Positions 1,459-16,171 of a DNA stretch of 46,052 bases are shown piece after piece. Position 1 is the stretch's first letter. Each line of letters opens with the position of its first letter. Both the position numbers and the translations under genes were made by a program. The DNA is from a virus (lineage: Duplodnaviria; Heunggongvirae; Uroviricota; Caudoviricetes). The DNA lies in IMG/VR virus record IMGVR_UViG_2671180885_000005. The stretch is one strand, 5' to 3'. The notes under the pieces were generated by a model. That model was not told the DNA's origin. It saw nothing but the letters and a program-made list of their open reading frames with translations, and did not search any database.

Positions 1459-2622
1459 TTACACATCATTAGTACCTTCCTTATTTTTTGACTGGGACAA
1501 ATTTGGGACCGATGGGTTCAGGATCAAGTCTATTTGCCGTGCGTGTTCGGTAAGGTGATTAGGTGCAAGGTGAGCATATCGACGAACCATTTCGATAGAC
1601 TCCCAGCCTCCCATTTCCTGTAACACTGACAACGGGACTCCGGCTTGAACCAGCCAACTTGCCCAGGTGTGTCTCAAGTCGTGAAATCTGAAATCATCAA
1701 TACCAGCCCGTCTCAGCGCCGCTTTCCAGGCTGTGTTTGCGTCATACCGCATCTTCCTTACTGTTGGCGCTTTCGTTCCGTCTGGTTTGGTACAGCTTTC
1801 CTTGTACACAAATACCCAACGGTGATGATTCCCGATTTGTTTTTTCAATACGCGACATGCAGTATCATTCAGCGCAACGCCAATTGCGCGGTTTGATTTA
1901 CTCTCTTCCGGGTTTATCCATGCCACCCGGCGCTGCATATCTATTTGTTGCCATTCAAGGTTGATGATGTTCGAGCGTCTTAAGCCTGTTGCCAGTGCAA
2001 ATTCAACAACAGACTTTAATGGCTCCGGACATTCATCAATCAGCCTTTGTGCTTCATGGGGCTCCAGCCAGCGGATCCGTTTATTCTTTGGTTGAGGCAC
2101 TTTAATAATTGGTGCCTTATCCAGCATTTTCCATTCACGCTCTGCGGCTCTTAGTAGGGCCTTTATAAATGAAAGATGCGTAGCCTTCGTTGCAACGGAC
2201 GCTGGTTTTGGCGTGTATTCTGGAACAGGTTTCCCTTTTTTTCTGCATGCTTCTGCCCTGAGTTTCCAGTTTTCCTCATGACGCCGGTTCGTCATTTTCT
2301 GCATTGCTGAATAAATTTTTGATTCAGTAATGTCTCTTAGTTGCATTCCTGCGAAATGTTGAAGCCAGAATCCGATCCGGCTTTTGTCATCGTCAAGTGA
2401 TTTTTTATGTGCTTTCTCTTCAAGCCACCTGACACACGCTTCCTCGAACGTTATATCAGGTATTTCACCAAGTTTGCTGACCCGCCATGCTTCAGCCTTT
2501 AGCTTGTCATGGAGTTCTGTCGCCTGCCTTTTGTCCTTTGTTCCAAGAGACTGTTTAAATCTTTTACCGTTCGGCAATGTGAAACTGGCGTACCATATTT
2601 CACCTCTGCGGAAGAGTGACAT
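1459..2622 (-). CDS. int: tyrosine-type site-specific integrase
   Basis: 387-aa ORF next to attL, transcribed toward the tRNA; C-terminal catalytic region [39 protein letters not shown] (R..HxxR..Y pattern). Confidence 0.9.
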
Positions 2623-2849
2623 TTTCTTTCCTCTGTTATGCCATCACCCGCGCTCACCTGGACAGTATGCAGCGGAGACTGAAGAGCCGCAATGCAGGCT
2701 TGTCGTGTTGTGAGGTAAGGAGATTTATTCTTAGTGGGATCTTTGCGTGTTGCCTGAAGACGCCCTGTGCGTATCCAGTTAATAGCAGTCGGTCTGGATA
2801 TCTTGAGAAAATGACAGGCCTCATCGAGTGTGAGGCTGTATGGCTCCAT
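2499..2849 (-). CDS. xis: excisionase-like HTH DNA-binding protein
   Basis: Internal ATG at 2849 ([31 protein letters not shown]...) preceded by AGAGGTG; the HTH region resembles Xis/AlpA-type proteins; the 3' end overlaps int, as lambda xis does. Confidence 0.55.
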
Positions 2850-3193
2850 TATTTCACCTCTTGCTGTGACATTGTTGAAAAATGGATACCAGCTCGTTGC
2901 TGCCAGACGATCCAACCGAGAGTCATATCCCATGCCATGTATTCGTTATCGCCGTTTTTTGCTCTCCGACGATCGACTGTTTTACCGAAACGCTTTTCCA
3001 TAAATAATTCATAGGCTGCGCGTTCATCTGGCTCAACTTCCAGAGATGCCAGTGCAATCCGTGCCAGTTCTAAATCATTTTCAAGCTCAGCGCGAATCTC
3101 AGCGAATGCACTCTGTGTTAAGGTGAACTCAATGCTCTGCACTTTATTCCGTGCGCGCTCAAGCAGTGCATGGTAGTTAATTTCGGTTGTCAT
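2849..3193 (-). CDS. hypothetical phage protein (114 aa)
   Basis: ORF with a strong SD (GAGGTAGGGG) before the ATG at 3193; its stop overlaps the xis start (TAATG). Confidence 0.6.
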   Translation of the reverse strand: MTTEINYHALLERARNKVQSIEFTLTQSAFAEIRAELENDLELARIALASLEVEPDERAAYELFMEKRFGKTVDRRRAKNGDNEYMAWDMTLGWIVWQQRAGIHFSTMSQQEVK

Positions 3194-4068
3194 ACCCCTA
3201 CCTCTTCGAATTCCAATTCCAATTGATCACCCCAGATTTCACATGACTCTGAACACGAGCCGGTATCGAATCGCCTGGCCTGTACCATCGCCTGATACAA
3301 ATTTCTGTAGTCGCTGTTGGCAGACATTCTGGCAATTCCGTCAAGCGTCAGGTGACCACGGTACATAATGTCTTTACCTGTTCTGCGATGATCATCCCTG
3401 ACGTGTTTGCCTGTAACCAGCTCATTAAAAACTCGCATCAGACCTGGTTCGTCTTTACATGCAAGCCCCAGCTTTTGCGTTGACTTTTTGATGCAGAAAA
3501 CACAGTTCCCGAGATGCTCCGGGATTTGCAAATCAAAAGGTTGTTTTCGCCACCACCGGATAACATCCGACTTATCAAAATCTGACAGCTCGGCAAGATA
3601 CCGGACGCCCGATTTCGGTTTCAGCCTACGGGGTTCGTCTGCACGAATACCCAGCCATGTGATGTAATTACCTCGCCCGAAATGGTTATCGCAGTATTTC
3701 GTGAAAGGGATGAGTTTTAGCCTGTCAGTACAGAACGCGCCGCCGATGTATGGCGTGCCGTACTTTTTAACCATGTCCATAAACGGTTTAAGCACCGGCA
3801 TTCGTGTCTGAATATCCTTTGGCTCCCATTCTGTATAACCATTTGGCTGCCCAAGCTCAGGATTTATATCGACCTGTAACACAGTTAGTGGTATGTCCCA
3901 GAACTTCACAACCTCCCGGATAAAGCGGTATGTCAGCGGATGTTCGCAACCGGTATCCATAAAGATGTAGCAGACGTTATTGCCAGCCTTTCTTTGTTCT
4001 TCCATCAGGTGAACAAGATATGCGGATGTTCTCCCGCCAGAAAAACTAACTACATGAGTTATGCACAT
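3190..4068 (-). CDS. PAPS reductase-family PP-loop ATPase
   Basis: Translation from the internal ATG at 4068 (MCITHVVSFSGGRTSAYLVHLM...) shows an SGGxxS PP-loop-like motif typical of the PAPS reductase / adenine-nucleotide alpha-hydrolase superfamily; start chosen to avoid a long overlap with the upstream gene. Confidence 0.75.
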   Translation of the reverse strand: MCITHVVSFSGGRTSAYLVHLMEEQRKAGNNVCYIFMDTGCEHPLTYRFIREVVKFWDIPLTVLQVDINPELGQPNGYTEWEPKDIQTRMPVLKPFMDMVKKYGTPYIGGAFCTDRLKLIPFTKYCDNHFGRGNYITWLGIRADEPRRLKPKSGVRYLAELSDFDKSDVIRWWRKQPFDLQIPEHLGNCVFCIKKSTQKLGLACKDEPGLMRVFNELVTGKHVRDDHRRTGKDIMYRGHLTLDGIARMSANSDYRNLYQAMVQARRFDTGSCSESCEIWGDQLELEFEEVGV

Positions 4069-4595
4069 TTGCGTAATTCCGATAACTCGTTGAAGCGTTC
4101 CATAAACATCCCGTAGGCATGGCCCGGTGCCAGTGGAATAACTTTGAACATCTCTGTTGCCGGGATACCTTCCAGTACAGGCCATAAAGAGCCATCATCA
4201 AGCCCGAGATCACGGCGTTCGGTTGCCAGCATAATGAGATCGGCATATTTCACTGGCGTGCTCATAACAGGAGGTAACCCGTATTTCTCACGGATTACTG
4301 CATCTATTTTTTCTTCCATCCGTTTATAGTCAGGAAGAAGGCGTTTCAGTGGTGCGGGGATGTCCTGGCAATACGCTTCTGTTGCATCATGCATTAACGC
4401 TTCAAAAGCAAATTCCTGTGGCACCAGCTGGCTGCAAAGCACCGCATGTTGGGCGACACTGTAGAAGTGAGAAAGATGACCGGCAAAGCGGCAGATATTT
4501 GAAAGGGAAACCGCGATATCGTTAATCACGATGTCGTCTTTATTTATCTTGTCATAATAAAAATGCTTCCCGGAAAAAGTTTTAATAAATGACAT
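4059..4595 (-). CDS. HD-domain phosphohydrolase (YfbR-like 5'-deoxynucleotidase family)
   Basis: ATG at 4595 preceded by GGAGA; H...HD motif (HFYSVAQHAV...LMHDATEAY...DIPAPLK) resembles YfbR-type HD nucleotidases. Confidence 0.7.
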   Translation of the reverse strand: MSFIKTFSGKHFYYDKINKDDIVINDIAVSLSNICRFAGHLSHFYSVAQHAVLCSQLVPQEFAFEALMHDATEAYCQDIPAPLKRLLPDYKRMEEKIDAVIREKYGLPPVMSTPVKYADLIMLATERRDLGLDDGSLWPVLEGIPATEMFKVIPLAPGHAYGMFMERFNELSELRKCA

Positions 4596-4722
4596 TTTGT
4601 TCTCCACGTATATGCGCTGCACCGCGCTGAGTTTGGGTAAAAGGAAGCCCTCACCATCCGGTGATTATTGAGTTAATTACGTTTCCATAAATGCCCCCGC
4701 AGGGGCATTTGCAGTAATGAAA

Positions 4723-5547
4723 TCAGGCGGTGAAAGTACCAATAAAGGTTTCTACTTTGCTGTCTTTGAATTTCTCAACAAGCAGATCACGAAATTCGTT
4801 AGCCATATCTTCCTGCACCGCTTCCAGCTGAATAATGCGCAGAACCAGTACAGGACGATCGCCAGTGATAATGCTGAGGCGTAATTTAAACGGACGTTCT
4901 TTCAGACCTTCAAACGGAACGCATTTAAATTCAAATGCCACTGGCATAATGTCTTTGGTCTTCGCTTCGACAGATTCCATCAGGGAGCGTTTGCCGCTGA
5001 AGTCATTATCTTCAAAATCAGCGGTCTGGTTTGCTTCAATCGTGATTTTACGGATTGCCGCAGCCGCTTTTGTTGCCTGAATGGCATCACCATTAGCATC
5101 AAAGCCCACAAGGTAGTCGGCCCAGTCTTCGATCCATTCTGCCAGTGACTTCTGGGAGTTACGCTCGCCGTTAACAGACAACAGAGCAGAGAACGGTGCT
5201 GTCTTTTTCAGTTTGAGAGTGGCAGTGTTATCTGCGTGACCTGGCTCATCAATAGTACCCAGGTTAAGCACACTGACGGCACGCATATTATCGGCATCGA
5301 TAAAGCAGCGGGTGCCTTCATCTGCAAGATCTTTAGAATAACGGGTAAAGTCATCGATGCTGGCAGTGGAAAGCGCACCACGGAAACGGAAGCGATTTAA
5401 ATTAAATTTTTCCAGATCATGAATGCGGAAATTCTCAGGCAATGCCACAGCATCGGCACCAATCTTACTGATAATTTCATTAACACCCTGAGCAGAAATA
5501 AGGGCATGGATTTGATTAATTGCGGTTGCGTCTAAGTTCTGAGACAT
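4723..5547 (-). CDS. DUF2303 / YfdQ-family phage protein
   Basis: 274-aa ORF, SD GAGGA before the ATG at 5547; sequence resembles the YfdQ family of E. coli prophages as I recall it. Confidence 0.75.
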
Positions 5548-5612
5548 AATAAGTCCTCACTATATAAAGATATTCAGTGATGAGATAAATAATCAGTTTA
5601 TTAAGAACGATA

Positions 5613-5975
5613 TTAACGACCTGCTGCGCGGAGTTTTCCGTCAGGCTCACCGGCAAGAGTCAGTAATTGTCCCTGGTCTTCCTGCAGAATAGTCAGGCGA
5701 CCACCGCGATTGACATACATCGGCGTTTCGGTGGTGTCTTCTTCGGAAATTTTCCCACGGTTAGTCGGGCGAACATATGAGAGTTTGTGTTTGATTTTCA
5801 CACGGTTCTCATCAAATGGTTCGATTTCCAGGTTGAGTGAGACCTTACCTTTGGTTTTCGTGTTCATCACACCGGAAGCGACTTCACTGAGAACTGCGCC
5901 GATTTTGGTTTCAAATACGCCGCCGTCCAGCTCCCCGATAAATGCCTGCACATCAGTACTGCGTTCGCTAGCCAT
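5613..5975 (-). CDS. hypothetical phage protein (120 aa)
   Basis: Internal ATG at 5975 (MASERSTDVQAFIGEL...) with AGGAG 9 nt upstream; the longer 226-aa ORF in the track runs through a GC-rich region with no start signal. Confidence 0.6.
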   Translation of the reverse strand: MASERSTDVQAFIGELDGGVFETKIGAVLSEVASGVMNTKTKGKVSLNLEIEPFDENRVKIKHKLSYVRPTNRGKISEEDTTETPMYVNRGGRLTILQEDQGQLLTLAGEPDGKLRAAGR

Positions 5976-6575
5976 TTTGCTGCTCCTCATCATATCGACC
6001 CTGCAAGGCCGATTAGTTTCTCCACAAAACAGAGAAGAACACCTGCGGTGGCAGCCGCCCGGATGGATTGGGTTATGAGCCCGTCGTCCGGTGATGCTCT
6101 TCTCTGTTTTGTAAAAAGAGCGGTACCAGCCGGAAGCAAGGGTACAAACTGGTACCGCCAGGACTACACACAGCATAAAGTTGTGGTGCCGGGTGCCTCC
6201 CGGTGCCTGGCGAAGGTTGCACACCAGACGGGTGGGTATCCACAGAAGGTCGACTGTCAGCCTCAACCTTAACCCGCGTGCGCTGAGCCGCATTCACCAC
6301 AACGCTAAGGATTCTCTCTGGTTGAAAATACTTAGCTGTTATGTGCCTGTCTTTTCACCACTTCAGGCTCGGTGGTATCCTTTTAAGCCCGTATACATAA
6401 AAGGAAAATCAAATGACTTTTGATGAAAAAGAACTTGATAATGCAATTAATAAAATCATCGTAACGTCGCTCTTTTCCTGTCTCAGCGACACTCAGCAGA
6501 AACAGTTCTACGAATCGGCTTTCAACATGATCGAGCGTTGTTGTTTCTGCGATGCCGACGAGTTACCTGAAAAAA

Positions 6576-6851
6576 TCAGGAAACAGTTGGCTGATGCTCT
6601 TCGAGTGCGACTTTCTGACCAATTTTCTGAAATGTGCTCTCCGAATTTGGACAAATAGAAAAAGGCCATTTCCATTCAGGGTCTGATGGAAATACTTCAG
6701 CCTGTTCCAAAGCACGGTGTAAAGAGAACACAACTCCAGCCATAATCTGATGTTTCCCATTGGTCCAGCTATCGCCGCTCTGATCTACAGGAGCGGCTAT
6801 GTCGTATGACCAAACGACTTCACCACTATTGTTTAAAATCTGGACTTTCAT
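6576..6851 (-). CDS. hypothetical protein (91 aa)
   Basis: ORF with GGAGG SD before the ATG at 6851, immediately after the upstream minus-strand gene; its 3' end overlaps antisense with the plus-strand ORF 6413..6658, so only one may be real. Confidence 0.45.
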   Translation of the reverse strand: MKVQILNNSGEVVWSYDIAAPVDQSGDSWTNGKHQIMAGVVFSLHRALEQAEVFPSDPEWKWPFSICPNSESTFQKIGQKVALEEHQPTVS

Positions 6852-6859
6852 TTTGTTCT

Positions 6860-7063
6860 TTAACCTCCAGATTTCCGCGCATCTAAAGGCGCATTCTCAT
6901 TTGGTGTGAACTGAATAGTTGTGCTGATATTGATTAATGCCCCGACACACAAGACTACGCACTCAGAGCAGATAGCAACTTCATCTTTTCCGCCTTTGGC
7001 GATGATTTTTTTTGCCTGCAGCTCGTTTGCGCTACAAAACGAGCATGTGAAATAACGGTTCAT
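6860..7063 (-). CDS. small protein with ClpX-type C4 zinc-finger motif
   Basis: MNRYFTCSFCSANELQAKKIIAKGGKDEVAICSECVVLCVGALI resembles the ClpX N-terminal zinc-binding domain (CSFC...CxxC); start uncertain between 7063 and 7081. Confidence 0.55.
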   Translation of the reverse strand: MNRYFTCSFCSANELQAKKIIAKGGKDEVAICSECVVLCVGALINISTTIQFTPNENAPLDARKSGG

Positions 7064-7168
7064 TTGCGCTCTCTTACACATAGTATTTAACGAATCATCC
7101 GGTCATTCATACGCCACCGGCGGCTACTTCGTGGGCGTCCTGCCTGTTCGTTATCTTTGATATAAAAT

Positions 7169-7182
7169 CTAACTTAACTTAG
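7169..7182. promoter_or_regulatory. candidate OL operator (CTAAC-N4-CTTAG palindrome)
   Basis: 14-bp near-palindrome CTAACTTAACTTAG in the intergenic region downstream of the repressor gene; same motif as the two sites between cI and cro. Confidence 0.4.
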
Positions 7183-7247
7183 TTATTATGGCAAGAGAAA
7201 ACACCAAACTTTTCTTAGTTCGGTGCCTTAGTTAGAGAAGAGAGGTC

Positions 7248-7874
7248 TTAGAGTTCGTATTGAACTCCTTTGACTACACCAATGATAAGGCAATTACCAT
7301 TGATAGGGATGTTGGGATACCGAGGATTTAATGGCACTAAAAACTTTTGAGGGCCATCGATGACTAATTTTTTTACTGTAGCTTCGTTTGTTCCATCAAG
7401 TCGAGCGATGACTATTTTTCCATGACGAGGTTCTGCATCTGGATCTACAATCACTGTTGCGCCTTCTGGTATTGTTGGGAGGCCATTAGGGTTAGTCATG
7501 GAGTCACCTTTAACCTCTAATGCAAATGAGTTATCACCAATCTTTAATGATGTATCTACCCACTTGTCCACTTCACTAAACACTTCTGCTGCCCTGCACT
7601 CAGTAAACTGCCCAGCCTGAACCCACGATATTACAGGAACTCTGCGCATGTTTGTGACGAGTTTGCCTTCAAACTCAGCACCATAAAGAATGTAATCTAT
7701 TGACGTATTGAAGAACTTCGCTAATTTCGAAAGTGCCTCCCCACCAGGGGTATTGATGTCTTTCTCCCAGTACCCCACAGCAACGTCGCTTACTCCACAA
7801 AATTTACCCAATTCTTTCTGGGACGTTCTGGTAACTCTTCTCAGAGCTTTTATACGCTGACCAACCGTTTCCAT
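7248..7874 (-). CDS. cI: CI-like prophage repressor (HTH-XRE plus S24 LexA-like peptidase domain)
   Basis: N-terminal HTH (QKELGKFCGVSDVAVGYWEKD), C-terminal S24 autoprotease motif (GDSMTNPNG...K); divergent from a cro-like gene. Confidence 0.9.
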   Translation of the reverse strand: METVGQRIKALRRVTRTSQKELGKFCGVSDVAVGYWEKDINTPGGEALSKLAKFFNTSIDYILYGAEFEGKLVTNMRRVPVISWVQAGQFTECRAAEVFSEVDKWVDTSLKIGDNSFALEVKGDSMTNPNGLPTIPEGATVIVDPDAEPRHGKIVIARLDGTNEATVKKLVIDGPQKFLVPLNPRYPNIPINGNCLIIGVVKGVQYEL

Positions 7875-7896
7875 AGGAGCACCATTTTTTGAATTG

Positions 7897-7910
7897 CTAA
7901 GTAATCTTAG
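7897..7910. promoter_or_regulatory. candidate OR operator site 1 (CTAAG-TAAT-CTTAG perfect palindrome)
   Basis: Perfect 14-bp palindrome in the cI–cro intergenic region. Confidence 0.45.
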
Positions 7911-7945
7911 TTTTTATTGACCAAAGATAGATTTGTAATTAGCAT

Positions 7946-7959
7946 CTAACAAAACTTAG
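7946..7959. promoter_or_regulatory. candidate OR operator site 2 (CTAAC-AAAA-CTTAG)
   Basis: Second copy of the same motif 36 bp from site 1, just upstream of the cro SD. Confidence 0.4.
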
Positions 7960-7971
7960 TTTGGAGGGCGT

Positions 7972-8172
7972 ATGACAACTGACGATATCGAAAGCTACTT
8001 CGGCAGTATTGAGAAAGTTGCTGCTTTTTTCGGCATAACAACTGAAGCCGTTTATCAGTGGCGAAACCGTCCGGGCCAGTTAATTCCAAAAGGACGTGCA
8101 GCAGAAGCTGCATATAGAACTTGCGGACGGTTGCCATTTAAACCTGAGCTTTATGAAAAATCTAATGGATAA
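7972..8172 (+). CDS. cro: Cro-like / YdaS-like HTH regulator
   Basis: 66-aa ORF divergent from cI, SD GGAGGG before the ATG; HTH segment FGITTEAVYQWRNR. Confidence 0.75.
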   Translation: MTTDDIESYFGSIEKVAAFFGITTEAVYQWRNRPGQLIPKGRAAEAAYRTCGRLPFKPELYEKSNG

Positions 8173-10538: not shown

Positions 10539-10864
10539 TGACGACGTTAACTCAATGCCAGCAGCAGGTGCTGGATATGCTGATTTCTTACCAGAAAGAA
10601 CGTGGCTTCCCGCCAACCAATCAGGAGGTGGCTACCATGCTGGGATACCGTTCAGTGAATGCAGCGGTGGAGCATCTTCGCGCACTGGAGAAAAAAGGCG
10701 TCATCACGATAAAGCGTGGCGTGGCACGGGGGATAACGCTTCATACCGCGGTGAAGGACGACGACAGCGAGGCGGTCGGGATTATCCGCTCACTGCTTGC
10801 CGGTGAGGAAAACGCCAGGCTGCGTGCAGCCCACTGGTTACATGAGAGGGGCCTGAAAGTATGA
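10538..10864 (+). CDS. LexA N-terminal DNA-binding-domain protein (no peptidase domain)
   Basis: MTTLTQCQQQVLDMLISYQKERGFPPTNQEVATMLGYRSVNAAVEHLRALEKKGVITIKRGVARGITL parallels the LexA N-terminal winged helix (LTARQQEV...MPPTRAEIA...[23 protein letters not shown]); only 108 aa, so the S24 domain is absent. Confidence 0.65.
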   Translation: MTTLTQCQQQVLDMLISYQKERGFPPTNQEVATMLGYRSVNAAVEHLRALEKKGVITIKRGVARGITLHTAVKDDDSEAVGIIRSLLAGEENARLRAAHWLHERGLKV

Positions 10865-11256
10865 AGCTGATCCTGCCTTTTCCGCCCAGCGTGAACACGT
10901 ACTGGCGACACCCCAACAAAGGGGCGTTTGCTGGTAAGAGCCTGATAAGCGCGGCGGGGCGCAAATTCCAGAGCGCGGCGTGTGCAGCAATAGTTGAGCA
11001 GTTACGTCGTCTGCCAAAACCAACGTCGGCACCTGCTTCAGTGGAGATCGTGTTGTTTCCTCCGGATAACCGGATCCGCGATCTGGACAACTATAACAAG
11101 GCGCTGTTTGACGCCCTGACCCACGCGGGTGTGTGGGAAGACGACAGACAGGTGAAAAGAATGCTGGTGGAGTGGGGACCGGTTATCCCGAAAGGGAAGG
11201 TCGAGATCACTATCACTAAGTACGAAAAAGCGAGTTGCAAATTAGCAACTCGGTAA
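10861..11256 (+). CDS. rusA: Holliday-junction resolvase RusA
   Basis: 131-aa ORF with motifs LPFPPSVNTYWRH...RDLDNYNKALFDALT...WEDDRQV typical of RusA. Confidence 0.85.
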   Translation: MKLILPFPPSVNTYWRHPNKGAFAGKSLISAAGRKFQSAACAAIVEQLRRLPKPTSAPASVEIVLFPPDNRIRDLDNYNKALFDALTHAGVWEDDRQVKRMLVEWGPVIPKGKVEITITKYEKASCKLATR

Positions 11257-11418
11257 CGGAATTGAGCAACACCCTAAATTTGGGTATTACCTCGTTAAAG
11301 ATACTGTATTTATGAACAGTGTATCCTTGATAACTATTAAAAATCGCAGTAAGTTCATCCTGCATCAACGAAAAGGGAGTGCAGTCCCGCTCGTGGATAA
11401 AAATTTGTGGAGAAACCA

Positions 11419-12234
11419 ATGAATCAGTTGCTTGTAATTGATGGCGTTTCTGTGCGCCAGTACTTCGAATCTAACTACTGTCTTAACGACCTTCAGAAAG
11501 CTGCTCTTCTTGCCGCTGGTGAGAATCGCTCCTCCCGTTCGCTGGAAGTTCACGAGTTTATGCGTCGTCCTGAAACGAAGGCTCTTGTGGAATTATTGGA
11601 AGAAGAAACTACGGGAGATTCCCGTAGTATTCCTGTCATCACCATTCAGGGGCGCAATGGTGGGACGTATGTCTGTAAAGAGCTGGTCTATGCATATGCA
11701 ATGTGGATCAGCCCGGCATTCAGCTTAAAAGTGATACGTACTTTTGATGCGCTTCATAATTCATCACCAGAAGAAACCACATCCGACAAAATTAAATCCG
11801 GGGTCATTCTGCTTGAATCAGCAGCAAAGACTCTAAATCTGTCAAACTCCTCGAAACTTGGTGCATACCAGAAATTATCAAAGGTAGCTGGTCTTCCTGA
11901 ACTTATGCCGATCTATGCCATTGATGCACCTGCTGATGCGCCAGATGGTTCAAGCCGCCCTACGCTGTCGCTGAGTGCACTGCTGAAGCAGTATGGTATC
12001 CGCCTGACGGCTAATCAGGCATATCACCAGATGGCGAAGCTGGGGATCGTTGAACAACGCGAACGATACAGCCGTACCGCAATTAACAACATTAAAAAAT
12101 TCTGGTCGCTGACGGCGAAAGGCTGCATGTTCGGCAAGAATATCACCAGTCCCGCAAATCCACGTGAGACGCAGCCGCATTTCTTCGAATCCCGATTCCC
12201 TGAGCTGTTAAAGCTGCTCGATACCGTTCATTGA
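11419..12234 (+). CDS. KilA-N domain protein
   Basis: ATG at 11419 after GGAGA; segment GTYVCKELVYAYAMWISPAFSLKVIRTFD matches the KilA-N domain signature. Confidence 0.7.
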   Translation: MNQLLVIDGVSVRQYFESNYCLNDLQKAALLAAGENRSSRSLEVHEFMRRPETKALVELLEEETTGDSRSIPVITIQGRNGGTYVCKELVYAYAMWISPAFSLKVIRTFDALHNSSPEETTSDKIKSGVILLESAAKTLNLSNSSKLGAYQKLSKVAGLPELMPIYAIDAPADAPDGSSRPTLSLSALLKQYGIRLTANQAYHQMAKLGIVEQRERYSRTAINNIKKFWSLTAKGCMFGKNITSPANPRETQPHFFESRFPELLKLLDTVH

Positions 12235-12235
12235 G

Positions 12236-13231
12236 GTGACCGTGAGAGCACTACTGACCCCTGAAATTGCCCCGCGTATGGGGATCGTATTGTTCAGGCC
12301 AGGTTCAGAGCTGATGCCCCTGTTTATGCAGGGGCGAGTCCTGCTGGAGCCTGAGCCGGAACGTTATTCATCTTTCGCCAGTGGTGCCGTTCCGGCGGCA
12401 TCACAACCGCTGGCGGATGATCCTGCCGTTCGGGCCGTGTTCCGCAATGAGGCAGTGATCCGTCGTGCTGGTGGCGTGGAATGTCTTGAAAGCTGGTTAC
12501 TTCGTGAAAAAGGCTGCCAGTGGCCTCATTCCGACTGGCACAGCGAGAACATGACCACAATGCGACACGTGCCGGGCGCAATCCGTCTGTGCTGGCACTG
12601 CGATAACCAGATGCGCGATCAGTTCACGGAACGGCTGGAATCAATGGCAACGGATAACTGTGCCCGCTGGGTGTTGTCTGTTGTGCGTCGGGATCTCGGT
12701 TTTGATGACAGTCACGTTGTGACAATGCCGGAACTGTGCTGGTGGCTGATTCGTAATGATCTGGCGGATGCCTTACCGGAAAGTGCAGCCCGTAAGGCAC
12801 TGAGATTACCGAAGCCTGTTGTGCCGTCTGTTACCCGGGAAAGTGACCTTGTGCCTTCGGTTCCTGCCACCAGCATCATCCTGGATAAGGCGAAAAAGGT
12901 GCTGGCGCTGAAAGTGGATCCGGAGTCGCCGGAGTCTTTTATGTTACGCCCCAAACGTCGCCGCTGGGTTAATGAAAAGTACACGCGCTGGGTTAAGACA
13001 CAGCCGTGTGCATGTTGTGGAAGGCCCGCTGATGATCCCCATCACCTGATAGGTTACGGTCAGGGTGGAATGGGAACAAAAGCGCATGACCTTTTTGTGT
13101 TGCCTTTGTGCAGAAAGCATCACGACGAGCTGCATGCGGATACCGTGGCATTTGAAGAGAAGTATGGCTCCCAACTGGAGCTGATATTTCGTTTTATCGA
13201 TCGCGCGCTGGCGATTGGTGTGTTGGCCTGA
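12236..13231 (+). CDS. DUF968-family protein (YdfU-like) with C-terminal Cys/His motif
   Basis: 331-aa ORF (GTG start); C-terminal CACCGRPADDPHH...CRKHHDELH resembles the DUF968/HNH-like region of Qin-prophage YdfU. Confidence 0.65.
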   Translation: MTVRALLTPEIAPRMGIVLFRPGSELMPLFMQGRVLLEPEPERYSSFASGAVPAASQPLADDPAVRAVFRNEAVIRRAGGVECLESWLLREKGCQWPHSDWHSENMTTMRHVPGAIRLCWHCDNQMRDQFTERLESMATDNCARWVLSVVRRDLGFDDSHVVTMPELCWWLIRNDLADALPESAARKALRLPKPVVPSVTRESDLVPSVPATSIILDKAKKVLALKVDPESPESFMLRPKRRRWVNEKYTRWVKTQPCACCGRPADDPHHLIGYGQGGMGTKAHDLFVLPLCRKHHDELHADTVAFEEKYGSQLELIFRFIDRALAIGVLA

Positions 13232-13248
13232 TTTGGTGGAGAAAGTTG

Positions 13249-13614
13249 ATGCGTGATATTCAGATGGTTCTGGAGCGTTGGGGAGCATGGGCGGCGAGTG
13301 ATAGTTCTGGAGTAGACTATTCGCCTATAGCTGCTGGGTTTAAGGGGCTTCTTCCCTACACAAGCAAAACACGTCAGGCTTGTTCAGATAGTGATGCATT
13401 AATTATTGAAGGTTGTCTTGCTCGTCTAAAGCAAAAAAAGCCAGATGAGCACTCGCTGCTTGTGGCACATTATTTATACAGAATATCCAAGCGTAAGATT
13501 GCAAAGGTGCGTGGAAAGGATGAAAAATTGGTACGCATAGAAATACAACTAGCCGAAGGATTTATTGATGGTTGCCTTTCAATGTTGGATGTTAACCTTG
13601 AAATGGACGCTTAG
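13249..13614 (+). CDS. late-gene antiterminator Q (QuuD-type)
   Basis: N-terminus MRDIQMVLERWGAWAA... matches my recollection of DLP12 QuuD and related Q proteins; GGAGA SD before the ATG at 13249. Confidence 0.8.
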   Translation: MRDIQMVLERWGAWAASDSSGVDYSPIAAGFKGLLPYTSKTRQACSDSDALIIEGCLARLKQKKPDEHSLLVAHYLYRISKRKIAKVRGKDEKLVRIEIQLAEGFIDGCLSMLDVNLEMDA

Positions 13615-14120: not shown

Positions 14121-15062
14121 TTAGTCTCTGCTAGCGAGCTCATACTGTGCAAGATAGTTCGCGTTATCAATTTTAGCAGATATCATCGCCGTTCTGATAT
14201 CAGAATCGGATGGATAACCGCTTTTGACAATGATTGTCTTTGTACTGACCAATACTTGGTCAAGTAGACTTTTGGGCGTTCTATTGGATGGCTCTGTTAC
14301 ATCAATTTTTTTAATTTTTAGACCTCCAGAACCTTTTGGAAAAAGTTCAAGTAGTTCCTTAATAGCATCGGTGACAGAAGTTTTTAGATAGTTAAACCCT
14401 TGTTTTTTCGGGCGAATCCGACCTCGCATATTTAATCTTAGATGCGACCCGCCCATACCAACAACCATGTCAATAATTTCATTAGCTAAAGGGTTTTTAA
14501 TCTTATAATTAGCTTTGTTAAAGTTTCTTGGAGCAGCAACTATAAGATCGAAACTACGTAGGATATTTCCGTCCTCAAGCAGTTCCTTCATGCTCTCTTG
14601 TTTCCAAATGGCTTCAAAAGTGACGCTTTTTAAATCAGTTTTGTTATACAAAATGAATGCCAGATCATTTACTTTGGGCCCTATATGGTTGAGGGTCATA
14701 GCTAATAAGTCCGTTTCGTAGTAATAGATAAAATATGTTCTTTCAACTACAGAATCTTTATCATTTAAAGGAATTGTTCTCTCACTACCTGTAGCATCCT
14801 CGATGAACGGTAGTAGGCATTCCCTTCTCCACGATACGTAACCAAAGTAACATTGCAGTGTGGTATCTTTTTGAAGAATAACTAACTTTAACCCTCGATT
14901 TGGGGTGTATGTTGTGTAAGTTATTGGAAAAGTTACAGTATCTGCTGTGGTCATTTGCTCAAAGGCTAGTTTTGCAGCAGATGTGCCATCTTTTTTGCTT
15001 CCATTACCAGTGAAAAAACCAACTCTCACTCGCCTGGTTTTATTCTTATTTTCTGTACTCAT
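14121..15062 (-). CDS. hypothetical soluble protein (313 aa), cargo gene 1
   Basis: Long AT-rich ORF antisense to the phage late genes, in the Q–holin moron position; no family recognised by eye. Confidence 0.6.
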   Translation of the reverse strand: MSTENKNKTRRVRVGFFTGNGSKKDGTSAAKLAFEQMTTADTVTFPITYTTYTPNRGLKLVILQKDTTLQCYFGYVSWRRECLLPFIEDATGSERTIPLNDKDSVVERTYFIYYYETDLLAMTLNHIGPKVNDLAFILYNKTDLKSVTFEAIWKQESMKELLEDGNILRSFDLIVAAPRNFNKANYKIKNPLANEIIDMVVGMGGSHLRLNMRGRIRPKKQGFNYLKTSVTDAIKELLELFPKGSGGLKIKKIDVTEPSNRTPKSLLDQVLVSTKTIIVKSGYPSDSDIRTAMISAKIDNANYLAQYELASRD

Positions 15063-15358: not shown

Positions 15359-15685
15359 ATGCCTCATAACCCAAATACCTGGCTGGAGTTGGTCCAGAGC
15401 TGGTGGCGTGGAGACACACCGCTGGGCGCAGTGATTATGTCGATCGTTATGGCTGGCTTGCGCATTGCCTATTTTGGCGGTGGTGGTGGCTGGAAACGAA
15501 AAACGCTCGAGATTTTGCTCTGTGGTGCTCTGACGCTGACTTTTGCATCCGCTCTTGAGTATGTCGGATGGCCTAAATCTCTTTCTGTTGCCATTGGTGG
15601 CGGCGTTGGGCTGATCGGGGTCGATGCTATTCGTGGGGCTGCAATGAGAGTAATCGGTAATAAGTTTGGTGGCTCTAAGGAGTAA
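15359..15685 (+). CDS. holin
   Basis: 108-aa protein with hydrophobic TM segments, immediately upstream of endolysin R; SD GAGGTGAGAG. Confidence 0.8.
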   Translation: MPHNPNTWLELVQSWWRGDTPLGAVIMSIVMAGLRIAYFGGGGGWKRKTLEILLCGALTLTFASALEYVGWPKSLSVAIGGGVGLIGVDAIRGAAMRVIGNKFGGSKE

Positions 15686-15688
15686 TTT

Positions 15689-16171
15689 ATGCAGGTACTA
15701 AATTCCCAGCGTAAAGCTTTCCTCGATATGGTGGCATGGTCAGAAGGAACGGATAACGGGCGACAACCGACACGTAACCACGGTTATGACGTTATTGTCG
15801 GAGGTGAACTGTTCACTGATTACTCCGATCACCCTCGCAAACTTGTCACGCTAAACCCGAAACTTAAATCAACAGCCGCAGGACGTTATCAGCTTCTTTC
15901 ACGCTGGTGGGATGCTTACCGTAAGCAGCTTGGGCTGAAAGACTTCTCTCCAAAAAGCCAGGATGCTGTGGCATTGCAGCAGATTAAAGAGCGTGGTGCT
16001 TTACCGATGATTGATCGCGGCGATATCCGTCAGGCTATTGATCGTTGCAGCAATATCTGGGCGTCATTGCCGGGCGCTGGTTATGGTCAGTTCGAACATA
16101 AGGTTGACAGCCTGATTGAAAAATTCAAAGAATCGGGCGGAACGGTCAGAGAAATTCAGCTATATGAGTAG
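15689..16171 (+). CDS. R: endolysin (lambda R-type lytic transglycosylase)
   Basis: Near-identity to my recollection of lambda R ([58 protein letters not shown]...). Confidence 0.95.

Follow-up and report, generated by a model that had tools for sequence, protein, structure and literature searches.

In the early-left operon of the Caudoviricetes prophage analysed here, a gene for a PP-loop protein of the PAPS reductase family overlaps a gene for an HD-domain protein, which raises the question of whether the two act together. A first-pass annotation, made from the sequence alone, placed the pair where lambdoid phages usually carry exo, bet and gam and proposed that it could form one nucleotide-modification or counter-defence module. 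The window, which is the whole stretch of 46,052 nucleotides that was analysed, is the IMG/VR virus record IMGVR_UViG_2671180885_000005. Our preferred reading, held at slightly better than even odds (a probability of about 0.55), is that these are two co-transcribed, functionally independent accessory genes: yfdR, and a cassette-borne gene of the NinC family for a DndC/SspD-like enzyme that would serve in escape from Dnd.

The early-left operon and the cassette in the place of yfdS

The features of this end of the prophage are as follows (window positions).

1369-1444, tRNA-Thr, adjoining the integrase gene at the attachment end
1459-2622, minus strand, tyrosine integrase gene, adjoining tRNA-Thr at the prophage attachment end
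2499-2933, minus strand, excisionase gene (Pfam HTH_17 at 3e-8; PHROG 2907, excisionase, at 1e-50)
2849-3193, minus strand, yfdT-like gene, 114 aa (PHROG 660 at 7e-24), with a chimeric N-terminus
3059-4060, no strand assigned, mosaic cassette of about 1 kb with the ninC-like gene and the 5' third of the yfdT-like gene, filling the yfdS slot
3190-4068, minus strand, ninC-like gene, 879 nt, encoding a 292-aa PP-loop protein of the PAPS-reductase family
4059-4595, minus strand, yfdR, 537 nt, encoding a 178-aa HD-domain protein
4723-5547, minus strand, yfdQ (DUF2303; Pfam DUF2303 at 4e-93), the conserved upstream neighbour of yfdR
5613-5975, minus strand, yfdP (RefSeq annotation of an identical prophage; PHROG 204 at 4e-50)

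The PP-loop gene and the overlapping HD gene lie on the minus strand and, as the first-pass annotation had described, downstream of the DUF2303 gene; its domain assignments (PAPS_reduct, YfbR-like HD and DUF2303) are confirmed by Pfam and PHROG. An E. coli chromosome of 99.9% identity is annotated accordingly in RefSeq, with genes at window positions 3190-4068 and 4059-4595, exactly the span that had been noted, named 'PAPS reductase domain-containing protein' and yfdR 5'-deoxynucleotidase, respectively. Mechanically called ORFs extend farther upstream, to 4185 for the PP-loop gene and to 4622 for yfdR; homology and annotation speak for the shorter starts. The ninC-like gene and yfdR overlap by 10 nt, with the ATG of the former (4068-4066) within the final yfdR codons, and the yfdT-like and ninC-like genes overlap by 4 nt. 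A promoter and terminator scan of 2400-8000 gave nothing decisive between the genes. The prophage is located at thrW, beside proA, and looks intact, as judged by the structural and lysis genes in the window.

No match of the exo/bet/gam type was found with Pfam or PHROGs in the eight early-left ORFs scanned (2499-7081). However, sister prophages carry exo/RecT/gam alongside yfdQ and the PAPS gene, and these genes are therefore additions, not replacements.

In blastn comparisons, E. coli K-12 CPS-53 and phage SfV match at 97-98% down to window position 4061, at the yfdR stop, and again from 3058 on. This slot is filled in K-12 and SfV by the 363-nt yfdS/orf29, which likewise overlaps yfdR by 10 nt. 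The comparison shows that a recombinational cassette of about 1 kb, bearing the ninC-like gene, displaced yfdS of the conserved yfdP-Q-R-S-T block. The block is otherwise recognisable as yfdQRST of CPS-53, with yfdP, yfdQ and the C-terminal two-thirds of yfdT kept in order; the last ~66 residues of the yfdT-like protein are near-identical to K-12 YfdT, and its N-terminus differs. Where CPS-53 has yfdS (DUF551), the window prophage has the ninC-like gene.

YfdR and its probable action on host replication

The HD protein is YfdR itself, a named prophage family. It is identical to K-12 YfdR at 175 of 178 residues, matches PHROG 318 at 1e-110 and the Pfam YfbR-like family at 3e-5, and finds PDB 2gz4 (Atu1052) in the structure database at 4.9e-13. 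The HD residues (H..HD..D) are present in AQH, MHDATE and YAD. With YfbR, the housekeeping 5'-deoxynucleotidase of E. coli, it shares the HD fold, the HDxxE motif and weak Pfam and NCBIfam matches. However, it stays below the YfbR cut-offs, scoring 19.8 against 122 bits for the equivalog NF003009 and 24.2 against 25.9 bits for PF12917. K-12 YfdR has been reported to bind domain I of DnaA directly, to inhibit initiation at oriC when overexpressed alongside YfdQ plus one of YfdS and YfdT, and to be a weak nucleotidase with an affinity for nucleotides far below that of YfbR (PMC4776307).

In the window, yfdQ and the yfdT-like gene are both present beside yfdR. At 98% identity to the K-12 protein, the window YfdR would be expected to act on host replication and not on nucleotide pools. 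The earlier suggestion of an HD nucleotidase that reshapes these pools does not carry over to a protein reported to bind DnaA and to have poor nucleotidase activity, and no evidence for a pool role was found.

Family placement of the PP-loop protein

Judged by sequence, the PP-loop gene is a member of the NinC family and a homologue of lambda ninC (Orf290, lambdap64). The two proteins are identical at 226 of 286 residues (79%) in a gap-free alignment, have the same length and share all family-conserved motifs; both genes lie in an early operon and are annotated as PAPS reductase family. They differ in position: lambda ninC is flanked by ninB and ninD in the rightward nin region, whereas the window gene has yfdR and the yfdT-like gene as neighbours in the leftward early operon, and ninB and ninC are absent from the nin-equivalent region of the window prophage. 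Lambda NinC is non-essential, assigned to the PAPS reductase family by annotation, and poorly understood (PMC10695390, PMC3224144). The homology to lambda ninC had been missed by the first-pass annotation.

The profile searches are in line with this placement. PHROG 424 and 33262 are matched at about 1e-90, and PAPS_reduct (PF01507) at E=2e-8, with 34.9 bits against a cut-off of 22.5 and with only positions 2-65 of the 175-position model aligned. Among the PADLOC defence-system profiles, SspD is the best match (1.3e-14), followed by BrxP (3e-4) and DndC (5e-3 and 6e-3). The SspD alignment joins residues 5-152 to model positions 2-125 of 277, thus covering the N-terminal half only, and the DndC similarity is marginal, with no stretch passing alone. 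No full-length SspD match and no SspA/B/C neighbours were found; the DndC operon partners DndD (an ABC ATPase) and DndE are absent from the window and from 57 diverse loci; and QueC is matched neither by profile nor by linkage to DpdA, QueD or QueE. The CysH equivalog of NCBIfam (NF002537) is not reached, at 21.2 bits against a cut-off of 154. CysH has a degenerate PP-loop and a C-terminal ECGLH catalytic motif, neither of which is found in the window protein, with its SFSGGRTS loop and C-terminal GSCSESCE. The first-pass annotation had named DndC, QueC, CysH and a phage-specific clade as candidates; the outcome is the NinC family and not housekeeping CysH, with catalytic residues that appear intact.

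Among 55 sequences, with identities down to ~28%, conservation reaches at least 90% at the PP-loop and at the cysteines C113, C189, C192, C272 and C276, none of which the window protein lacks. It also carries the complete NinC family signature, comprising the SxSGGxTS PP-loop, TGxE, C113, GNCxFCxKK and the CxExCE tail. An AF2 model reached a pLDDT of 85.6, with the C-terminal tail below 50, and no solved structure matching the C-terminal ~130 residues was found. DndC has been described as a PP-loop enzyme with a three-cysteine [4Fe-4S] centre and a sulfur-relay cysteine dyad (PMC10853773), and the cysteine pattern of the window protein is compatible with this description. With DndC, SspD and BrxP it shares the PP-loop ATP pyrophosphatase core, and its three cysteines plus dyad resemble published DndC. 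In contrast to these systems, the N-terminal half alone aligns, DndA/D/E and SspA/B/C neighbours are missing, and the protein is phage-borne and stand-alone, DNA sulfur transfer being a property that we infer for it.

Possible function of the NinC-like protein and competing explanations

The closest link to a function comes from Vibrio phages. The PP-loop protein is 55% identical over 283 residues to the PAPS domain of p0018 from Vibrio phage 44E38.1, and its likeness to p0018 of 44E38.1/75E35.1 includes the PP-loop and all conserved cysteines. When p0018 (PAPS-Dam) and p0019 were jointly swapped into a sensitive phage, it infected a retron-deleted, Dnd-carrying host at 1e11 PFU/ml (bioRxiv 10.1101/2021.05.05.442762). 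This anti-Dnd result has since been cited as accepted (PMC13551039, PMC10945359), and for a vibriophage PAPS gene one report describes no visible difference between Dnd+ and Dnd- hosts (PMC10945359). The systems differ in that p0018 ends in a Dam domain and follows p0019 (DUF6475), neither of which the window has (no p0019 homologue was detected there), and in that the host is Vibrio and not E. coli. As a DUF6475 protein, p0019 is unrelated to YfdR and was rejected as its counterpart.

The conserved motifs suggest that the NinC-like protein is an active enzyme and, further, that it transfers sulfur to DNA in an ATP-dependent, DndC-like manner. The intact SxSGGxTS PP-loop would convert ATP to AMP and PPi, C113 and C189xxC192 are positioned such that they may bind a [4Fe-4S] cluster, and the C272xxxC276 dyad on the disordered C-terminal tail could take persulfide sulfur from host IscS. 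In the manner of DndC and SspD, the enzyme would then sulfurate replicating phage DNA at the expense of ATP, either alone or by co-opting DNA-targeting partners of host or phage such as Dam. The product might be a phosphorothioate or a related thio-mark, which would let the phage escape phosphorothioate-dependent restriction of the DndFGH type. The NinC-like protein is probably a DNA sulfur-modifying counter-defence enzyme. The one experimental support for this model is the genetics of the 55%-identical Vibrio homologue; the chemistry and substrate we infer. Several observations were counted against it: known phosphorothioation needs DndD/E or SspB/C, none of which is nearby; the window protein has no fused Dam, a marginal DndC match, a partial SspD match and a C-terminal part that no solved structure matches; the Vibrio swap moved two genes at once; and one report, cited above, saw no effect of a vibriophage PAPS gene. 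In the literature searched, no report of a phage DNA sulfur mark made by the NinC family was found.

Four other explanations were weighed. A joint module of YfdR and the PP-loop enzyme for nucleotide modification or counter-defence, in which YfdR might for example supply or remove a nucleotide intermediate, would fit the 10-nt overlap, which implies co-transcription and probably translational coupling, and the recurrence of the arrangement in 282 complete E. coli genomes. We consider it quite improbable in light of the neighbourhoods, which were surveyed by tblastn and ORF clustering across 134 fetched loci; in 57 diverse loci, the two genes on either side were also scanned with Pfam. The overlap that joins yfdR to the PP-loop gene is identical to that with the unrelated yfdS in K-12 and SfV, yfdR occurs in 3007 of 5426 genomes, mostly without a PP-loop gene, and all YfdR-adjacent copies found belong to one allele group (at least 93% protein identity in viral loci; 93.7-99.9% nucleotide identity in the sampled E. 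coli rows). Homologues at 28-93% identity adjoin a 147-aa protein, a weakly ASCH-like protein, NinB, Dam or exo/RecT, and a YfdR-like gene was seen in only one other locus of the 57, 4 kb away on the opposite strand. No universal partner emerged from the 134 loci or from the 57 that were Pfam-scanned. Most neighbours are positional (NinB, DnaB, exo/RecT). Of the yfdR-bearing loci examined, most keep the yfdQ-yfdR order. Two features of the neighbourhoods were counted in favour of the sulfur-modification model. The ninC-like gene always lies in early operons, whether in the nin region, the early-left region or beside exo/RecT, and a single association of the gene is both recurrent and functionally coherent, that with DNA methyltransferases. 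In 13 of the 57 loci Dam is close by (fused in six, directly upstream in four and within 3 kb in three), and independent fusions place Dam at either terminus or involve a D12 methyltransferase. In the window itself, tblastn seeded with Dam and D12 sequences found no adenine methyltransferase of either type, and Pfam recognised no methyltransferase domain in the ten early-right ORFs scanned.

The same fusions to DNA methyltransferases argue against an auxiliary metabolic gene, in which a CysH-like PAPS/APS reductase would boost sulfate assimilation during infection. This explanation, common in virome papers, a point counted in its favour, also draws on the Pfam PAPS_reduct match and on CysH and APS reductase as the best Foldseek matches in the PDB. 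We regard it as improbable, since the TM-scores to CysH are just 0.4-0.5, the Pfam alignment is limited to the first 65 of 175 model positions, the equivalog score is 21 bits against 154, and the canonical SGGxTS loop and CSESCE tail depart from the CysH features. An active enzyme with a product other than phosphorothioate is less improbable and still unlikely; it would make another base modification, perhaps coupled to N6-adenine methylation, or thiolate tRNA in the style of TtuA/NcsA, with an indirect anti-Dnd effect. Against it stand the Vibrio genetic link to Dnd escape, the position of SspD as the nearest defence-system profile and the DndC-like cysteine pattern. A non-catalytic decoy that binds or blocks host DndCDE or DndFGH components would agree with the resemblance to the N-terminal domain of DndC/SspD and with the missing partner enzymes; strict conservation of the PP-loop and five cysteines down to ~28% identity argues for catalysis and makes the decoy very improbable.

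A new HD plus PP-loop module does not hold up, as both proteins belong to named families and 282 complete E. coli genomes have the arrangement: yfdR is part of the yfdP-Q-R-S-T block, the PP-loop gene came on the cassette that replaced yfdS, and the adjacency is confined to alleles of at least 93% identity. The proposed role in DNA modification or counter-defence remains plausible for the PP-loop gene, given the Vibrio domain and the Dam fusions, and had been published; it does not extend to the pair. That the enterobacterial prophage "PAPS reductase" belongs to the lambda NinC family was not made explicit in the literature searched. The family combines a DndC-like cysteine set with 55% identity to the sole phage PAPS domain for which genetics has given an anti-defence phenotype, which calls for caution in routinely labelling NinC-family genes as sulfur-assimilation auxiliary metabolic genes.

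For lambda ninC, a concrete and testable hypothesis follows. We tentatively propose, as a possibility below even odds, that the NinC family, with lambda NinC (an orphan from the early 1980s on) among its members, consists of autonomous phage DNA sulfur-modifying enzymes that use IscS persulfide and PP-loop/[4Fe-4S] chemistry to make a phosphorothioate or undescribed thio-mark, often with Dam, and so disarm phosphorothioate-sensing restriction; the early-left operon would have acquired the window copy from the nin region.

Other candidate partners were set aside. In other prophages and in phage-plasmids, the upstream place of YfdR is taken by 147-aa and 226-aa proteins with no HD-domain match, and the 147-aa protein has no BLASTP similarity to YfdR. 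DUF2303 accompanies the PP-loop gene in three contexts, one of them with a 32%-identical NinC; at three of 57 loci, this association is probably positional.

Gene content of the prophage left arm

Comparison with known phages and prophages shows what these genes are and that the region is a mosaic. Its features, with those of the regions to its right, are as follows.

1-1254, proA, at the window start
1369-1444, tRNA-Thr, after which the prophage begins
1459-2622, minus strand, integrase
2499-2933, minus strand, excisionase
2849-3193, minus strand, 114-aa yfdT-like gene (RefSeq name "DNA-binding protein")
3190-4068, minus strand, PP-loop gene
4059-4595, minus strand, HD gene (yfdR)
4723-5547, minus strand, yfdQ (DUF2303)
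5613-5975, minus strand, yfdP, with small genes between it and the repressor
6860-7081, minus strand, 73-aa protein with a ClpX-type C4 zinc finger (Pfam zf-C4_ClpX, 2.3e-9)
7248-7874, minus strand, LexA/cI-type repressor
10861-13231, region before Q, with RusA, a KilA-N protein and a DUF968/HNH protein
13246-13614, Q antiterminator
14121-15062, minus strand, 313-aa ORF (PHROG 7651, unknown function, 2e-145)
15359-16171, holin and endolysin genes

The PP-loop protein matches Pfam PAPS_reduct (34.9 bits, cut-off 22.5) and PHROGs 424 and 33262 (~1e-90), and the HD protein matches PHROG 318 (1e-110), the solved HD protein Atu1052 (2gz4, 5e-13) and, weakly, Pfam YfbR-like. The PP-loop gene starts (ATG) within the final codons of the HD gene, giving an overlap of 10 nt. 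The coordinates and domain calls of both genes in the first-pass annotation are thus borne out by Pfam, PHROGs and RefSeq annotation; a RefSeq E. coli chromosome with 99.9% identity over the interval carries the identical gene set with identical starts. It had also been proposed that these genes stand in place of exo/bet/gam. No recombination-type match was found among the eight early-left ORFs (2499-7081) scanned against Pfam and PHROGs. However, sister prophages carry exo, RecT and gam alongside yfdQ and the PP-loop gene, and the genes are therefore accessory additions rather than substitutes for a recombination module.

The zinc-finger gene heads the leftward early operon, directly downstream of the repressor gene. 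The 313-aa ORF, for which Pfam gave no match, lies in a low-GC stretch (0.38) on the opposite strand between Q and the holin and endolysin genes, at the position that stx occupies in Stx phages, and is a candidate moron or lysogenic-conversion gene.

A relocated ninC-like gene in a yfdR background

The PP-loop gene belongs to the NinC family and has been relocated. Lambda itself came up when phage genomes were searched at the protein level, and the window protein matches lambda NinC/Orf290, the product of the gene between ninB and ninD, at 226 of 286 residues (79%) without gaps. The pre-Q region of the window (10861-13231) holds no NinB, NinC or methyltransferase. NinC is non-essential, has been annotated as "PAPS reductase family protein" (PMC10695390) and is counted among the poorly understood lambda proteins (PMC3224144); in the literature searched, a single paper names NinC and PAPS reductase together.

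The HD protein is identical to YfdR of the K-12 prophage CPS-53 at 175 of 178 residues, and yfdR-like DNA is present in 3007 of 5426 complete E. coli genomes. As a YfbR it was rejected, failing the equivalog cut-off (19.8 versus 122 bits). K-12 YfdR has a much lower nucleotide affinity than YfbR and binds DnaA, with Phe46 of domain I being important for the interaction, and initiation at oriC is inhibited by extra copies of yfdQ and yfdR in combination with either yfdS or yfdT (Noguchi and Katayama, PMC4776307). Together with yfdQ and yfdT, the gene makes up a set with known action on DnaA.

Identity of 97-98% to CPS-53 and phage SfV ends at position 4061, the yfdR stop codon, and near-identity returns at 3058, within the 114-aa gene. 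Between these points, K-12 and SfV have the 363-nt yfdS/orf29, with the same 10-nt overlap with yfdR. It follows that a cassette of about 1 kb, comprising the ninC-like gene and a new 5' end for the yfdT-like gene, displaced yfdS. The 114-aa gene is chimeric: an unrelated N-terminal third is joined to ~66 final residues that are nearly identical to those of K-12 YfdT, which places a recombination joint inside the gene at about 3058.

Genomic contexts of the NinC family

The proposal that the HD and PP-loop genes form a module is contradicted by this cassette replacement of yfdS and by the contexts of their homologues; the two were placed side by side recently, by mosaic exchange. In the 80 viral contigs that carry the closest homologues, YfdR adjoins only NinC-like proteins at least 93% identical to the window copy; about half of the copies at 91-94% identity, and all of those at 69-83%, have no adjacent YfdR. 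The window-type allele occurs in 423 E. coli genomes, beside yfdR in 282; the remaining copies follow either an unrelated 147-aa gene, in O157-type prophages, or DUF968 and a 226-aa gene, on ~90-kb plasmids. In the nin region, a lambda-type copy is found in a further 149 genomes and a 54%-identical type in 28. Across 57 diverse loci (homologues to ~28% identity), just one other locus has a YfdR-like ORF, at a distance of 4 kb and on the opposite strand.

Close NinC-family alleles (~91% nucleotide identity) were located 72 times on E. coli plasmids of ~80-100 kb, among them pSX12-4 (89.6 kb; gene at 5001-5873) and others like it. Their neighbours include DUF968, metallophosphoesterase, DNA polymerase III theta and Ea22-like genes, and by gene content these are probably phage-plasmids. 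DUF968, present in the pre-Q region of the window, is an immediate neighbour of NinC-family genes on the plasmids and in several viral loci. Three contexts (window 4723-5547; L004, 6507-7328; L095, 2670-3446) have DUF2303 (YfdQ), usually after YfdP, upstream of the NinC-family gene, one of them being a metagenomic contig with a NinC only 32% identical to the window copy; as this is 3 of the 57 diverse loci, the association is probably positional. The NinC-family gene is frequently decayed or lost: several Stx2a-converting phages hold just a remnant of its last ~50 codons (e.g., LC727853.1, 10299-10454; 18% coverage, 88% identity), and truncated database proteins are also common.

DNA methyltransferases are the only functionally coherent associates of the family. 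Fusions to Dam (PF05869, at either terminus) or to a D12-class adenine methyltransferase occur in at least seven proteins, six of which each represent a separate 50%-identity cluster, and a 175-aa Dam gene overlaps the 5' end of the nin-region copy that is 79% identical. Dam is present in 13 of the 57 diverse loci (fused in 6, directly upstream in 4, within 3 kb in 3), and C5 methyltransferases lie downstream in 5. Within the window, adenine methyltransferases of the Dam and D12 types are absent, and a scan of ten early-right ORFs gave no methyltransferase domain.

Probable enzyme class and proposed counter-defence role

Profile searches ruled out CysH (21 versus 154 bits), so the PP-loop protein is not this housekeeping enzyme, and gave no match to QueC. 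Among defence-system profiles, SspD scores best (1.3e-14, over the N-terminal half only), with BrxP next and DndC marginal. In the AF2 model (mean pLDDT 85.6 over the whole chain), residues 1-265 are confident and 266-292 disordered. Across 55 diverse homologues, the PP-loop S8xSGGxTS15, T39G40xE42, C113, G187NCxxC192xKK and, in the disordered tail, C272xExC276 are at least 90% conserved; the window protein has every one of these residues. DndC is a PP-loop enzyme with a three-cysteine [4Fe-4S] centre and a sulfur-receiving cysteine dyad (PMC10853773); we infer that this layout fits the NinC-family pattern, a fit distinct from demonstrated residue homology. The NinC-like protein is most likely a DndC/SspD-like ATP-dependent sulfurtransferase, with mechanism and substrate both predicted.

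The first-pass annotation had suggested counter-defence by the HD and PP-loop pair; this is plausible for the PP-loop gene only, not for the pair. The PAPS domain of p0018, a PAPS-Dam fusion of Vibrio phage 44E38.1, is 55% identical to the window protein and is genetically linked to Dnd escape. When p0018 and p0019 together took the place of the equivalent region in a sister phage sensitive to Dnd, that phage grew to 1e11 PFU/ml on a retron-deleted host that retained Dnd (bioRxiv 10.1101/2021.05.05.442762); p0019 (DUF6475) has no counterpart in the window. Phage PAPS reductases have since been regarded as anti-Dnd factors (PMC13551039, PMC10945359), and one vibriophage study observed no Dnd-related difference (PMC10945359).

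A NinC-like sulfurtransferase would serve phage DNA modification and escape from phosphorothioate-dependent restriction. Public genomes already contain and annotate both genes in this arrangement, and counter-defence by phage PAPS reductases has been proposed in print before; a useful by-product here is a testable hypothesis for lambda NinC. E. coli B7A, which we take to be a classical dnd-positive strain, would if so offer a lead on NinC versus Dnd in a natural host. On its chromosome (NZ_CP035812.1, ~2621635), a NinC-family (PAPS-reductase-domain) gene lies beside a phage N6-adenine methyltransferase gene.
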